Virus record (IMG/VR): IMGVR_UViG_3300031999_000005
Span: 39,757 to 103,756 of that record
Origin: a virus
Direction: 5' to 3' (one strand)
Length of the DNA stretch: 64,000 bases
Part shown: positions 1 through 4,321 of the stretch, in pieces
How positions within the stretch are numbered: position 1 is the stretch's first letter
Layout: every line of letters starts with the position of its first letter
Translations under genes and position numbers: made by a program
Notes under the pieces: model-generated
Databases searched by the model: none
What the model was told of the DNA's origin: nothing
What the model saw: the letters and a program-made list of their open reading frames with translations, nothing else

Positions 1-1140
1 TCACTATTTCCCCCACGACCTGAGCAATGCGGCGAAGATGGCCGCATGGTGCAGCCCCTCAGTTGCGGACGGAACCGGAGGGCATTTGAGTCGCGGCGGG
101 AATCGGAGGAACGAACCGTTGCTTCCGGGACAGGCGAAACTGGCGAGTTGGGCCACGCCGCGAAGCACGGACGGCCAGAAGGGCGGGCCGAATCAGCACG
201 GCAGCAAGGGCGATCTGATGCTGCCGAGCCAGGCGGCGAGGGCTTCCTGGGCCACGCCAGCAGGGCGAGATTTTCGGGACGGGCGAGCCAGCCAGAAAAC
301 AATGGAGAAGAACGCACGGCCCCTGAACGAACAGGCGGTCCAACTAACGGCTTCTGGGCCAACGCCGAATGGCTCCACTGCCGAGACCAGAAATACCGGG
401 CAGTTGAACCCAAGTTTATCTCGCTATTTGCAGGGTCTTCCGGTAGAATGGGACTTGGCGGCTACAAGGGTAGAAAAGAAGCCGTCAAGGAGGAAGTGAA
501 TGCCAATCCCAGCGAAGCCGGACCCTGTAAGATTCTGCGCACTGTGCGGAAAGCAAATGCAGCGCCAGCGATACAACGGAGTCTTGGAGTCAAACCTGAA
601 CTTCCGGCGGCGGAAATACTGCAATCGAAACTGTATGGCCGTGGGGCAAATCCGCGAAGTAGTAATGAGCGTGAGCCACAGTCGGATCAAATCGCACCGC
701 AAGGCCAAGGCGGAGTGCGAGATATGCCGGAAGTCCGACAAGATCCATGTTCACCATCGCGACGGAAACCCCCTGAACAACGCGACCGACAATTTGCAGA
801 CTTTGTGCGCCTCGTGCCATCGTCTTACGCACTCGCCCAACTACATGGGGACACCGTTACTGCCGAAGCCATGTTCACACTGCTCAAAGCCAGTGGCGCG
901 GAAAGGCTTGTGCAATACCCACCTTACCAGGTTGAAGCGGTATGGCGATCCCTTGGTCAAGAAGTTCAAGATCGGCTCCGAATGGGTTTTGATGCGGGTA
1001 ACTTCGTGAGAATAACGGAACCGCCCCTCATCAAGGGAACCGTGAACAGAGTGGGACGCCTGCGCGGTTACGGCAACGCGCTCACGGCACCGGTTGCCGA
1101 GGCTTTCATCAGATGTTATCTTGAAATCCATGGGAGATAA
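1..1140 (+). CDS. C5-cytosine DNA methyltransferase, large (alpha) polypeptide, 5'-truncated by window
   Basis: Frame 1 is open from base 1 to TAA at 1140. It ends RVGRLRGYGNALTAPVAEAFIRCY (C5-MTase motif X) and contains GPTNGFW..AEWLHCRD.KYRAVEP, typical of phage C5-MTases. No motif IX is seen in this frame. Confidence 0.8.
   Translation, partial: SLFPPRPEQCGEDGRMVQPLSCGRNRRAFESRRESEERTVASGTGETGELGHAAKHGRPEGRAESARQQGRSDAAEPGGEGFLGHASRARFSGRASQPENNGEERTAPERTGGPTNGFWANAEWLHCRDQKYRAVEPKFISLFAGSSGRMGLGGYKGRKEAVKEEVNANPSEAGPCKILRTVRKANAAPAIQRSLGVKPELPAAEILQSKLYGRGANPRSSNEREPQSDQIAPQGQGGVRDMPEVRQDPCSPSRRKPPEQRDRQFADFVRLVPSSYALAQLHGDTVTAEAMFTLLKASGAERLVQYPPYQVEAVWRSLGQEVQDRLRMGFDAGNFVRITEPPLIKGTVNRVGRLRGYGNALTAPVAEAFIRCYLEIHGR
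2..499 (+). CDS. C5-methyltransferase small (beta) polypeptide in overlapping frame, 5'-truncated
   Basis: Frame 2 is open from base 2. Three W-x-[ST]-P-x3-D...QA repeats are followed by GQLNPSLSRYLQGLPVEW, matching motif IX (LTxRExxRLQGFP). Confidence 0.7.
   Translation, partial: HYFPHDLSNAAKMAAWCSPSVADGTGGHLSRGGNRRNEPLLPGQAKLASWATPRSTDGQKGGPNQHGSKGDLMLPSQAARASWATPAGRDFRDGRASQKTMEKNARPLNEQAVQLTASGPTPNGSTAETRNTGQLNPSLSRYLQGLPVEWDLAATRVEKKPSRRK
500..1009 (+). CDS. HNH endonuclease with Zn-finger motifs, nested inside the methyltransferase gene
   Basis: AGGAGG RBS then TGA-ATG junction with the beta ORF. CEIC..HVHHRDGNPLNNATDNLQTLCASCHRLTH HNH motif plus extra CxxC motifs. Confidence 0.85.
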   Translation: MPIPAKPDPVRFCALCGKQMQRQRYNGVLESNLNFRRRKYCNRNCMAVGQIREVVMSVSHSRIKSHRKAKAECEICRKSDKIHVHHRDGNPLNNATDNLQTLCASCHRLTHSPNYMGTPLLPKPCSHCSKPVARKGLCNTHLTRLKRYGDPLVKKFKIGSEWVLMRVTS

Positions 1141-1148
1141 ATAAATAG

Positions 1149-1607
1149 ATGAGAAGTCCATCAAGGCAGGCACTCTCAAATCAGCAGAAAAAAGCCGCAC
1201 TTGTGGCGTACAAGGGCGGCAGGTGTACAGATTGCGGAGGAACGTTTCCGCAGTGCTGTTATGACTTCGACCATAAGGACCGGACTCAAAAGCGATTCCA
1301 CGTTGGTAGTCATATAGGAGGGGCGCTTCCAGCACTGATGCTGGAAGCCGACAAGTGCGATCTCATCTGTGCAAACTGTCATCGCATCCGAACGGCTGCG
1401 GATGCTGGAATAGCAGAACATCTTTCTCGGATAAGGAAGGGCAAACCCGGCAGGCCGATGTCCGAAGAAAACAAGAAGCGGTTAAGCATCGCCACCAAGG
1501 GCAGGCGGCTGTCACAAGAACACAAGGAAAAACTCAGTGAGGCCAACAGGGGCAAGGTTCCCTGGAACAAGGGATTCTCTGCGCGCCGGTCGCGCAAGCC
1601 TTCATAG
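1149..1607 (+). CDS. HNH endonuclease with NUMOD3 DNA-binding repeats
   Basis: YKGGRCTDCG..YDFDH..KCDLICANCHRIRT; C-terminal SEENKKRLS / SQEHKEKLSEANRGKVPWNKG. Confidence 0.85.
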   Translation: MRSPSRQALSNQQKKAALVAYKGGRCTDCGGTFPQCCYDFDHKDRTQKRFHVGSHIGGALPALMLEADKCDLICANCHRIRTAADAGIAEHLSRIRKGKPGRPMSEENKKRLSIATKGRRLSQEHKEKLSEANRGKVPWNKGFSARRSRKPS

Positions 1608-1626
1608 AGGCGTACATGGGGTGCAG

Positions 1627-2352
1627 ATGAACGGATTGCCGAAGGCGTACTACGATGACGGGAGGGGGATCAGGATATACCTGGGAGACTGCCGTAAAAT
1701 TCTTTTCTTGCTTGAGCAGCATGATGCCTGCCTAACGAGCCCGCCGTACAATCTCAGGAAGGGATATCCATGCGATGATTGGCCGACATGGAATAATTAT
1801 TACGGGTTCCTGCGAGGTGTGTACGGAGCGGTTCCGGCGCCGATCCAGGCGTGGTTATTTCCATTTTCGCTGAATGACGAGGACTCAGGATTGATCCGCG
1901 CAACATGGAATGAATGTGCCCTCCCATGGAAGCGGCTAAGACTTGTCCTGCGGCATCCTTCCGTGGACGACAGCAAAAGCCTAATCGCAATGCCGCCACG
2001 AGCGGAAATCCTCTGCATCAATACTTGGGCTGAAGAGAACGGGCCGAAGATCTGGTGGGTGCCACACGCGAAGTTCGCGGCAAGTAGATTATCTATGCGG
2101 GTTGGTCATCCGGCCAGTTTCCATGAACGGTTGCCAGCAGAGTTCTTCGCAGCCTTCCCAACCGTTAAGTCGGTGATTGATCCATTCATGGGTACGGGGA
2201 CGACGCTTGTGGTCGCAAAGCAGCGTGGGATACAAGCGACCGGGATCGAGATTGTTGAGGAATTTGCCGAACTTGCAGTGAAGCGTTTGGCGCAGGAGAT
2301 GTTGCCGCTTCGAGCACCTGCTTTGGAGCCAGAGCAGGGGAGTCTGATCTGA
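1627..2352 (+). CDS. N4-cytosine/N6-adenine DNA methyltransferase (beta class)
   Basis: IYLGDC, TSPPY (motif IV), HPASF and VIDPFMGTGTT..GIE (motif I). Confidence 0.9.
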   Translation: MNGLPKAYYDDGRGIRIYLGDCRKILFLLEQHDACLTSPPYNLRKGYPCDDWPTWNNYYGFLRGVYGAVPAPIQAWLFPFSLNDEDSGLIRATWNECALPWKRLRLVLRHPSVDDSKSLIAMPPRAEILCINTWAEENGPKIWWVPHAKFAASRLSMRVGHPASFHERLPAEFFAAFPTVKSVIDPFMGTGTTLVVAKQRGIQATGIEIVEEFAELAVKRLAQEMLPLRAPALEPEQGSLI

Positions 2353-2367
2353 TTGCCAGGAGGGAAG

Positions 2368-2655
2368 ATGGTGCCATGGGGCGAATGCAGCCAGTGCGGG
2401 TTGTGCTGTTTGAGCAAGGGCGGACGGTATATCTGCGAACACCTGGAGGTGATTACCGCGGTGGGGGAGGCTGGGGGGACGCGGTGCAAGGTTTACGGGG
2501 AGCGGTGGCACTTAATGACGATTCGGATGCTAGACCGAGAGCGGGGGCGGGCGTCGTATGTGACAGAGTGCTTGATTTCCGAGCAGATGCCGTTTGAGGA
2601 GCGGAGGAGGAATTTGCCGGCGGGGTGTACGCTGGTGAATCCGGTGCTGGGGTGA
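2368..2655 (+). CDS. small Cys-rich protein (YkgJ/CxxCxxCC-like)
   Basis: CSQCGLCC...CEHL...CKVYGER...C pattern. Confidence 0.55.
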   Translation: MVPWGECSQCGLCCLSKGGRYICEHLEVITAVGEAGGTRCKVYGERWHLMTIRMLDRERGRASYVTECLISEQMPFEERRRNLPAGCTLVNPVLG

Positions 2656-2673
2656 ATGTCCAAATTTGGATGT
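2656..2673. promoter_or_regulatory. 18-bp palindrome, copy 1 (ATGTCCAAATTTGGATGT)
   Basis: Matches consensus AYRTCCAAATTTGGAYRT. Lies between a stop codon and the RBS of the HTH gene. Confidence 0.7.
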
Positions 2674-2683
2674 TGGAGGGGGC

Positions 2684-3157
2684 ATGGAGGAAAGGATCAC
2701 GGTCAGGTGCCCACGGTGCAAGCTGGTGCAGTACGTGGCTGCGGCCAAGCGTTGTCGGCGGTGCTGGTTTGCCGGTGTGATTGTTCCGTTGGGTGCTGAT
2801 CCTCTGGCCGCAGTGAGTAAAGTGCAACCTGCAAGCCCCGACGAGGCAGTGGATTTTCTTGAAGCGTTGCGATACTGGCGAAATATCGCTGGAATGAACA
2901 GAGCACAATTGGGCACCCGCATGGGCAGATACCGCCGGACGTATATCTATAGATGGGGAAGAGCGCGCCGTTCTCCGAATGTTGAGAACATCATGTCTGT
3001 GGCAAAGGCGCTTGGCATCCCGGCGAGGTGGCTGCTGGTTCCCTGGCCCACCGACGGAACATCCCGGATGATCTTGTGGGAGGCGAGCAAGTTGCCAGCC
3101 AAGCGCCGCTGGGAGTTGATGGGGAAGGTGCGGGGCATGGCTGAGGGGCGGGCATAA
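2684..3157 (+). CDS. Zn-ribbon + XRE-family helix-turn-helix regulator
   Basis: CPRC..CRRC then LRYWRNIAGMNRAQLG..R.YIYRW...SPNVENIMSVAKALGIP..WLL. Confidence 0.75.
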   Translation: MEERITVRCPRCKLVQYVAAAKRCRRCWFAGVIVPLGADPLAAVSKVQPASPDEAVDFLEALRYWRNIAGMNRAQLGTRMGRYRRTYIYRWGRARRSPNVENIMSVAKALGIPARWLLVPWPTDGTSRMILWEASKLPAKRRWELMGKVRGMAEGRA

Positions 3158-3235: not shown

Positions 3236-3634
3236 ATGAAACTGAGATGGCGAGGAATTCTGGTTTTGGTGATGGCGTGCGCGGTGGGCTTGGCGGGGCA
3301 GGTGAAGCCGGGTGCTGAGAAAGCGAAGGCCAGCGCCGACTCGATGGTTCTGAGCGAGGTGGAGACCCTCAAAGGCAAAAACCTGGACTTGAAAATCCTC
3401 ACAGCGCGGCAGGAGCAGGAACTTCTTCAAGTGCGCTTCCAGCAGATGCAGCAACGCTTCCAGTTGCTTGAGAAAGAGATCGAACTGCTAGATGCCGATA
3501 TTAAGCAGCATGAAAAGGACGTGCTGGCCGCGCACAAGGCACCGAAAGGTAGCAGGGTGGACACAAGCACCGGTCGGATTGTGCCGCCGCCCCCGGAGGC
3601 CAAACCGACAGAGAAACCACCTGAGTCGAAGTAG
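3236..3634 (+). CDS. secreted coiled-coil protein (paralogue of 37885..38109)
   Basis: Signal peptide MKLRWRGILVLVMACAVGLAG-Q, heptad region, C-terminal LAAH...G.RVD..TGRIVPPP. Confidence 0.65.
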   Translation: MKLRWRGILVLVMACAVGLAGQVKPGAEKAKASADSMVLSEVETLKGKNLDLKILTARQEQELLQVRFQQMQQRFQLLEKEIELLDADIKQHEKDVLAAHKAPKGSRVDTSTGRIVPPPPEAKPTEKPPESK

Positions 3635-3641
3635 AGAGATC

Positions 3642-3833
3642 ATGCCGGCAAGACGCAACGACAAACTGATGACCCCTGAGCGGCGTCGGGAACGCTGGAA
3701 GGAATGCGCGGAATATCTGCGCCGACATGGGAACCTGTCGGCTGCCAGGGCGGCAGCCAAGAAAGACGGGAAGAACCAGAACGTTAGCGTGTGGATCTCG
3801 GCCCTGGGGAAGATGCTGGAAGGGAAACTATGA
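3642..3833 (+). CDS. hypothetical small protein
   Basis: Follows the upstream stop; ATGA overlap with the next gene. Confidence 0.45.
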   Translation: MPARRNDKLMTPERRRERWKECAEYLRRHGNLSAARAAAKKDGKNQNVSVWISALGKMLEGKL

Positions 3834-4321
3834 AACTTCAGGAATGGTGGACGAAGGCGACACCGGCAGAGCGGAATGCGCTGGTGGCCGAGAAGATCAT
3901 AGGCATCACCGATTTCCGTAAGGACTGGCCGTGCTACATCTCGCCGGAAGACGGAAAGTTGGTGCCTTGGCTTGAAGAATGGGGTGACTTCACGGAAGGA
4001 GAACGTGATCGTGACCTCTTTACAGAACGTGGCCTTTTCTTCCGCAATGAATACGGTATCCTTGAGGCTGTTCCTGATTATCAAGGGGACATCGCAGCCG
4101 TATGGCAGGTGGTGGAGAAATTGCGGGATATGTGGACCATTGCTACGGCTAAAAGCGATGGAATCCATGGCGACTTTGAACACCCCTTTGACGACCTTCG
4201 ATTCTTTGAGCATCTACACCGTGCGGCAGACCGACGTTGGCCCTGGGCATTTTTGTATGTAACGCCTGAAATAATCTGCCTTGCGGCGCTGGAAGCCCTC
4301 GGCGTCGAGGAAGTCGGATAA
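3830..4321 (+). CDS. phage ABA-sandwich domain (BC1872-like) protein
   Basis: RNALVAEKIIG...PDYQGDIAAVWQVVEKL...PEIICLAALEA signature. Confidence 0.65.
   Translation: MKLQEWWTKATPAERNALVAEKIIGITDFRKDWPCYISPEDGKLVPWLEEWGDFTEGERDRDLFTERGLFFRNEYGILEAVPDYQGDIAAVWQVVEKLRDMWTIATAKSDGIHGDFEHPFDDLRFFEHLHRAADRRWPWAFLYVTPEIICLAALEALGVEEVG

Follow-up and report, generated by a model that had tools for sequence, protein, structure and literature searches.

A putative two-subunit C5 methyltransferase encoded in two overlapping frames of viral DNA, with a nested HNH cassette that its alpha frame appears to read through

We describe a DNA methyltransferase locus at the start of a 64,000-nucleotide stretch of viral DNA (the window), positions 39757-103756 of the 103.8-kb contig IMGVR_UViG_3300031999_000005. 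We propose, with a probability of roughly 0.7, that one stretch of DNA encodes both subunits of a C5 methyltransferase in two reading frames, and that a cassette carrying an HNH endonuclease gene is read straight through by the longer subunit. The longer open reading frame (ORF), alpha, starts 662 nucleotides (nt) upstream of the window in DNA of the same record; positions prefixed L001 refer to the locus with this upstream DNA added. The shorter ORF, beta, lies wholly within alpha at an offset of +1 (L001 914-1999 within 838-2640), as it does in 87 relatives, and ends with a TGA at window 497-499. A sequence-only reading of the window had assigned motif X to frame 1 and motif IX to frame 2, and both assignments are confirmed (1066-1080 and 401-454). 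It had also described the first 1 kb as double-coded; double coding stands, while its extent is far larger, with beta starting about 27 codons into alpha.

Results

Alpha and beta

The conserved blocks of the locus alternate between the frames. The catalytic domain in alpha is followed in beta by a helix-hairpin block and WPTP units, whose number varies; then come GFW..CRD..VEP in alpha, motif IX in beta and, finally, motif X in alpha. The first 172 residues of alpha form a C5-methyltransferase catalytic domain (PF00145 on residues 76-172, E 1e-12; phrog_363, E 3e-72), with motifs I (FAGxG), IV (PCQ), VI and VIII and the fold of an S-adenosylmethionine (AdoMet)-dependent methyltransferase. The blocks FFAG.G, CPCQ.FS, GEQV and APH.R.R are invariant columns in alignments of alpha. 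Its AlphaFold model matches M.HhaI (Foldseek E 8.8e-8), with predicted local distance difference test (pLDDT) scores above 90 at residues 1-170, high confidence in the last helix as well, and low confidence in the linker; the middle of the protein is both unconserved and of low pLDDT. Motif X, GYGNA and then a helix, lies on alpha at window 1066-1137, and frame 1 has no stop over window 1-1140.

Several tests bear on whether beta is a gene. Both frames are open in the first seven loci compared (7 of 7, including ε15, a Klebsiella phage, the Komagataeibacter phage phiKX1 and three viral contigs) and in all 87 related loci obtained when 80 more, chosen by alpha N-terminal patterns alone, are added. 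The sequence-only reading had suggested looking among homologues for stops in one of the frames, and there are none in either. In the 80 loci the longest ORF of the beta frame (+1) has a median length of 341 codons, against 62 in the third frame. Of 84 distinct loci, 77 have an ATG in the beta frame at -50 or -32 nt relative to the QCHFF codons. At this start, alpha uses AGG for Arg with a frequency of 31% (5.6% elsewhere), which forms the Shine-Dalgarno (SD) sequence AGGAG, and GAT for Asp with a frequency of 79% (30% elsewhere), which forms the ATG. In our locus the probable beta start is the ATG at L001 920, behind AAGGAG, in agreement with the public gene call P0001.

The synonymous sites of alpha are constrained solely where beta overlaps. 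In distant pairs, 51% of four-fold sites are identical over the stretch of the catalytic domain that beta shares; outside the overlap the values are 31% for the 31 codons that precede beta and 38% for motif X, which follows it, close to the 27-38% expected from composition. Alpha, in turn, lacks stops over the repeats of beta in 27 of 27 loci, against a mean of 3.6 when the codons of beta are shuffled synonymously, and in the same test the third frame has stops as expected. This argues that alpha is kept continuous from the catalytic domain to motif X. The start, synonymous-site and alpha-continuity tests agree in pointing to beta as a real, separately initiated protein.

The likely role of beta can be read from single-chain enzymes. 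The proteins P0127, P0129 and P0131 have an N-terminal PF00145 domain, then beta-like repeats, then motif IX, all in one frame, and the repeats of beta match single-chain proteins by BLASTP (E 1e-13 and 2e-11). P0127 and P0129 hold the beta-homologous sequence in a single frame between motifs VIII and X, and in P0129 motif X (..AGNGVVPQQ) follows motif IX. By this homology, beta would be equivalent to two parts of an ordinary C5 methyltransferase, the variable region for recognition and motif IX. Motifs IX and X are both present in our locus and both alignable with the single-chain relatives, but they lie on separate ORFs. The first ~135 residues of beta, over the catalytic domain of alpha, are without a counterpart in the single-chain proteins.

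Beta matches phrog_1008 (E 2.5e-24), and the protein catalogue has at least 2977 proteins of the beta type. No Pfam family was found in the 120 best beta homologues, except in one with an unrelated PF01555. The beta-type protein P0120 (413 amino acids), which has a PF01555 N4/N6-methylase domain, hints at fusions of the beta module to another class of methyltransferase. In a further locus (L013, 277-1755), one frame reads beta repeats, motif IX, a passenger over a truncated HNH gene and motif X. This is a division like that of M.AquI, with motifs I-VIII on one protein and the recognition region, IX and X on the other.

The nested HNH cassette

The limits of the insertion can be set by comparison with an uninvaded relative, L005, which is without either of the HNH genes of our locus (alpha is 67% identical in alignment A1, 56% in the best tblastn segment). 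Window 377-411 is identical in L005; the exact blocks common to the two stop at 411, restart at 1049-1083 and restart again at 1577-1614 (identical to L005 3500-3537). Because of these boundaries, and also of alignment A7, we conclude that the first cassette replaces 34 nt of the DNA encoding motif IX. The net gain of 603 nt is 201 codons, in frame for alpha. The HNH gene had been thought to occupy a dispensable stretch, which is not the case: it took the place of motif-IX-coding DNA and brought recoded flanks. The left flank provides a recoded motif IX with which beta ends, and the right flank restores the alpha lead-in to motif X; the beta frame is interrupted by stops in the right part of the cassette. 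The similar frame-1 segments noticed on either side of the insert are real, and are two diverged copies of a VEP...RVGRLRGY-coding stretch.

The sequence-only reading of frame 2, a TGA and then the ATG of an HNH gene, is borne out by a match of the product to phrog_1271 (HNH endonuclease, E 2.4e-14). The product scores 20.1 bits against Pfam HNH (cut-off 21.4), HNH_3 is also just below its cut-off, and HVHH...N...CH is conserved among its homologues (alignment A4). In five hosts of the alpha/beta type, only 0-2 codons separate the beta stop from the HNH ATG that follows it in the same frame, which suggests that HNH translation is coupled to beta termination. phiKX1 has the same architecture as our locus. 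The locus L140 (2252-4219) has a homologous HNH gene right after the beta stop, and its alpha of 656 codons is open through the HNH; it is the sole invaded locus found among the 80 alpha-pattern loci, four other long alpha ORFs having been checked without finding an HNH gene.

About 90 nt of the first cassette lie outside the HNH ORF. That the gene sits there without an intron or intein, as had been surmised, agrees with our searches: Rfam on window 1-3000, at E up to 10, returned one chance snoRNA match and no group I or II model, and Pfam found no Hint or intein domain in alpha. The sporadic distribution of the HNH gene, its conserved motif-IX target and its recoded flanks are consistent with a homing endonuclease that cuts the uninvaded allele and is copied into it.

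The second cassette lies 35 nt downstream and appears to embody a different solution. It supplies a recoded alpha 3' end (1084-1140, with the stop at 1138-1140) that copies the last 19 codons of alpha, the native ones being displaced, and the last codons of its HNH gene extend into the displaced native methyltransferase 3' end. This second HNH gene is of the ordinary free-standing kind.

Stop avoidance in the host frame

Frame 1 has no stop over the first HNH gene, where synonymous codon shuffling of the HNH ORF predicts a mean of 4.1 (P ~0.005); the third frame has 10 stops with 9.3 expected. The genome has 56% G+C, and alternative-frame stops in its other long ORFs occur at ~0.032-0.036 per codon. 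The stop-free frame 1 remarked on earlier is therefore beyond chance, and in phiKX1 the same shuffling test gives a P of ~0.0002 or less.

HNH relatives were found with patterns from an alignment that included a Staphylococcus sequence, as patterns from two sequences were too specific and gave no matches. The host-frame ORF spans the whole HNH match in 25 of the 26 viral loci with the closest HNH homologues (L009-L034; 30-68% G+C). All 22 host ORFs translated are C5-methyltransferase genes, and the homologous inserts sit ahead of motif IX or between motifs IX and X. Host-frame stops are absent from 22 of 23 distinct loci with a homologous HNH (among them this phage, phiKX1 and Staphylococcus phage CUB-EPI_14), where 1.6-11 are expected, and the third frame has stops as expected. 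The CUB-EPI_14 homologue (35% identity, E 1e-22) is in the +1 frame of a single-frame C5 methyltransferase, just before motif IX, and the host frame is open across it in DNA of 33% G+C. Homologous HNH genes nest likewise in single-frame methyltransferases, and tolerance of the insertion therefore does not depend on a double-coded host. On the shuffling results, the openness of alpha across the HNH gene appears to be kept by selection.

The passenger peptide was also considered as a selected insert domain. Its distant-pair identity is 21.5%, against 19.6% after synonymous HNH shuffling (z 4.5), and we dropped the idea because nearly all of its conservation is a by-product of HNH conservation. 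Alpha residues 479-547, within the passenger, are modelled by AlphaFold as helices at pLDDT 65-84.

Neighbouring genes and other nested nucleases

The features of the locus are collected in Table 1. An N4/N6 DNA methyltransferase (PF01555, with an SPPY motif) lies downstream of the C5 methyltransferase at window 1627-2352, and a PAPS-reductase-like protein (PF01507) lies upstream at L001 44-748. Together the three form a DNA-modification cluster.

Table 1. Positions of the features of the methyltransferase locus in the window
Feature	Position	Strand	Remarks
Alpha ORF (frame 1), 3' 380 codons	1..1140	+	Full ORF has 600 codons, L001 838-2640
Alpha content: C5-methyltransferase motifs I-VIII, linker, passenger peptide over HNH, motif X	1..1140	+	
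Beta ORF (frame 2 = alpha+1), last 165 of 361 codons	2..499	+	Full ORF is L001 914-1999
Beta content: WPTP-type repeats and motif IX	2..499	+	
Alpha-frame block GFW..W..CRD.K.R.VEP, alpha residues 338-358	349..411	+	Invariant columns, alignments A1 and A6
Beta-frame motif IX, QLNP..SR.L.G.P..WD	401..454	+	From 412 this is the cassette's recoded copy
First HNH cassette, 637 nt	412..1048	+	Replaces 34 nt of motif-IX DNA, L005 3434-3467
SD AAGGAGG	487..493	+	6 nt ahead of the ATG of the HNH gene; within codons of alpha and of beta
First HNH gene, homing-type endonuclease, 169 codons	500..1009	+	Frame 2; abuts the beta stop; overprinted on alpha
Native 35-nt block between the two cassettes	1049..1083	+	Encodes alpha RVGRLRGYGNAL, including GYGNA at 1066-1080; identical to L005 3468-3502
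Second HNH cassette, 493 nt	1084..1576	+	Recoded alpha 3' end, then most of a second free-standing HNH gene
Second HNH gene, 152 codons, NUMOD3 repeats	1149..1607	+	Pfam NUMOD3 E 1.8e-10; phrog_3106 E 1.4e-22
Displaced native alpha 3' end, frame 2 reads ..CAPVAQAFIEAY..	1577..1628	+	No longer joined to alpha

The same phage has a second nested nuclease, 15 kb before the window (L169 1663-2616, minus strand; ~24.1-25.1 kb of the contig, G000:C1). This is a Vsr/DUF559-like gene of 170 codons in the +1 frame of an SNF2-type helicase gene; its ATG is at L169 2237, behind a near-identical GGAGGAAGT.AATGCCAA start. The helicase frame has no stop over it, where 4.7 are expected (P 0.003). At L169 1655-1680 (minus strand) the helicase frame ends inside the Walker A motif, ..GAT GAG ATG GGC TGA CC GGC TTG GGT AAA ACT...; it reads DEMG-stop, and LGKT continues in a different frame across an 8-nt gap, with matched GGC codons flanking the stop. 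Possible causes of this break are a short hop of the ribosome, a -1 shift, a split gene and an error of assembly. In ~41 Brucella phage records, weaker homologues of the HNH core (matches H55 and H62-H80, record position ~3617-3938) are located beneath or beside the annotated large terminase gene.

Discussion

A model of the locus

In the model that we favour, AdoMet binding and catalysis would fall to a core in alpha made of motifs I-VIII, with motif X at the distal end of the same protein, while the poorly conserved linker between VIII and X would exist mainly since the frame must stay open. Beta, of ~360 codons and with its own SD and ATG, would supply the repeat-built recognition region and motif IX. 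The two polypeptides would both be made, would associate as the alpha and beta of M.EcoHK31I do, and would methylate DNA. That both are made and needed is supported indirectly by the conserved beta start, the two-frame constraint and the stop avoidance.

A homing-type HNH cassette would then have replaced the 34 nt, its recoded left flank ending beta and its right flank leading alpha to motif X. The HNH gene is probably translated by direct initiation at its strong SD, by re-initiation after beta, or by both, and the HNH enzymes may cut the uninvaded allele. Alpha would be read straight through the cassette as a passenger loop, which the enzyme presumably tolerates; with 201 stop-free codons added to alpha, neither RNA nor protein splicing would be needed. 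A stronger version of this model has about an even chance in our view. It would hold that the enzyme is an obligate heterodimer with ~340 fully overlapping codons, found in thousands of phages and prophages, and that the homing cassette split a duplicated target between the frames and couples the nuclease to beta termination. To our knowledge, an alpha/beta overlap of ~340 codons would rank among the longest same-strand gene overlaps.

Some of our results weigh against an active two-subunit enzyme. In the recoded motif IX, a position occupied by W in at least 90% of relatives is Y, and this copy could be impaired; the change, together with the presence of two cassettes, leaves room for an impaired enzyme. 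The linker and passenger ahead of motif X are long (240 residues), and 314 of the 600 residues of alpha are modelled with a pLDDT below 50. Stop avoidance is evidence that a frame matters and says nothing of the activity of its product. Beta alone is modelled poorly by AlphaFold (mean pLDDT 57, better at residues 80-130 and in the motif IX helices), and a search of the PDB with a beta profile gave no match. With an unconfident fold and no match among solved structures, it is solely through sequence homology to the single-chain enzymes that beta can be regarded as the small domain.

Could the methyltransferase simply be decaying, destroyed by two selfish insertions, with open frames that reflect recent ancestry? 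The two cassettes within 35 nt and the W-to-Y change would fit, and orphan phage methylases can be dispensable (PMC11855218). We nevertheless think this unlikely, as the locus by itself avoids alpha stops (P ~0.005), beta with its start and motif X are intact, and homologous invaded genes whose HNH sequences are only ~34-56% identical still keep the frame open. Two programmed frameshifts, one into beta past motif VIII and one returning to alpha past motif IX, would yield a single polypeptide with the canonical order I-VIII, recognition region, IX, X, and the order of blocks across the frames does equal that of the single-chain relatives. Yet beta is open and constrained, and its SD and ATG precede any such shift site by ~140 codons. 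Alpha has no stop anywhere in the repeat region, although ribosomes that had shifted would not read alpha there. Moreover, the alpha block GFW..CRD..VEP between the beta repeats and motif IX means that four shifts would be needed, and we consider the idea distinctly improbable.

The continuity of alpha bears on two other explanations. Were the gene in pieces, alpha would end in the passenger and motif X would be a separate small peptide from an internal start. The nrdA/mobE locus of phage Aeh1, a gene split into working pieces by a homing-endonuclease insertion (PMC3045599), is a precedent, and there are in-frame starts at 982 (ATG) and 1006 (GTG). By eye, neither is preceded by an evident SD, and stop avoidance over 170 codons in many lineages would go unexplained, which makes this very improbable. 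It is scarcely credible, finally, that the cassette is an intron or other spliced element and that the openness of alpha is incidental. HNH genes are common in phage group I introns, and the similarity of the flanks resembles intron guide-sequence pairing, as discussed for ShiLan (PMC11855218). Splicing would not, however, demand an open host frame, which we see in 22 of 23 loci from 30% to 68% G+C. The net insertion length is also a multiple of three, no Rfam intron model matches even at E 10, and the cassette has only its ~90 nt outside the ORF.

Comparison with known systems

Among known systems, M.EcoHK31I, from E. coli HK31 (YGGCCR; Lee, Kam and Shaw 1995), resembles the two-subunit model in layout. 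It is a C5 methyltransferase of two polypeptides, and its beta, which bears motif IX, is encoded entirely within the alpha gene in a different frame. Its beta is small and its recognition domain is on alpha (PMC2836561, PMC3404938). Here beta is ~360 residues long, overlaps nearly all of alpha including the catalytic domain, and carries the recognition repeats. The label "EcoHK31I-type" given in the sequence-only reading therefore holds for a two-frame, two-polypeptide enzyme and fails for the strict layout, in which alpha has the recognition domain and beta has motif IX alone. M.AquI (CYCGRG, two subunits) is similar in having part of the variable region and motif IX on a second subunit, but its subunits are consecutive and motif X is on its beta, whereas here motif X is on alpha (PMC3404938).

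Hidden, out-of-frame HNH genes have been described in mycobacteriophage DNA methylases, as the ShiLan domain and the Pacc40 gp60 insertion, where the host frame is open (Arsenault, Gosselin and Gogarten 2025, PMC11855218). As in ShiLan, we see an insertion in a phage methylase, a host frame without stops, an HNH ORF in another frame and no intron or intein signatures; the start of the insertion resembles the sequence after the insertion site, and distribution among relatives is sporadic. The HNH lineage is nevertheless different, although the kind of element is the same, and tblastn of the first HNH gene, with E limited to 1e-3, found no Mycobacterium phage among 50,697 phage records. The ShiLan ORF is in the third frame with a GTG and no ribosome-binding site (PMC11855218), whereas ours has a +1 offset and an ATG behind a strong SD directly after the beta stop. 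A further difference from ShiLan is that our cassette lies in a gene that already codes in two frames, with one flank serving beta and the other alpha. The Aeh1 nrdA/mobE locus likewise has a selfish nuclease gene within a coding sequence of the essential type that can still be used; its host gene is cut into separate ORFs (PMC3045599, PMC2988022), whereas here the host frame runs through.

Each feature of our locus has a published precedent; their combination is undescribed, as is the size of the overlapping family. Our literature search, which is weak evidence as its coverage lacked most subscription journals, found no description of a large two-frame phage methyltransferase family. Homing endonucleases encoded in introns or embedded in inteins are removed from RNA or protein. 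The cassette resembles them in occupying a conserved coding site without killing the gene, but there is no sign of removal here and the nuclease frame differs from that of the host.

Conclusions

Should both polypeptides indeed be made, the annotation of a very common phage gene is wrong. A database entry then has a single protein, which is either an alpha whose middle part makes no sense or a "hypothetical" beta; among 182 GenBank phage records, examples are ε15, BcepC6B and many phages of Klebsiella, Burkholderia and Salmonella. In practice, such loci will be split or wrongly joined by gene-calling programs and pangenome pipelines. For the HNH gene, the question of translation that was left open for ShiLan has a concrete, testable answer here, in an SD and ATG that abut the beta stop. 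Besides introns and inteins, selfish nucleases would have in this kind of nesting a third means of residing at conserved coding sites. The family as a whole, if both polypeptides are made, would be a large natural test bed for two proteins evolving on the same nucleotides.

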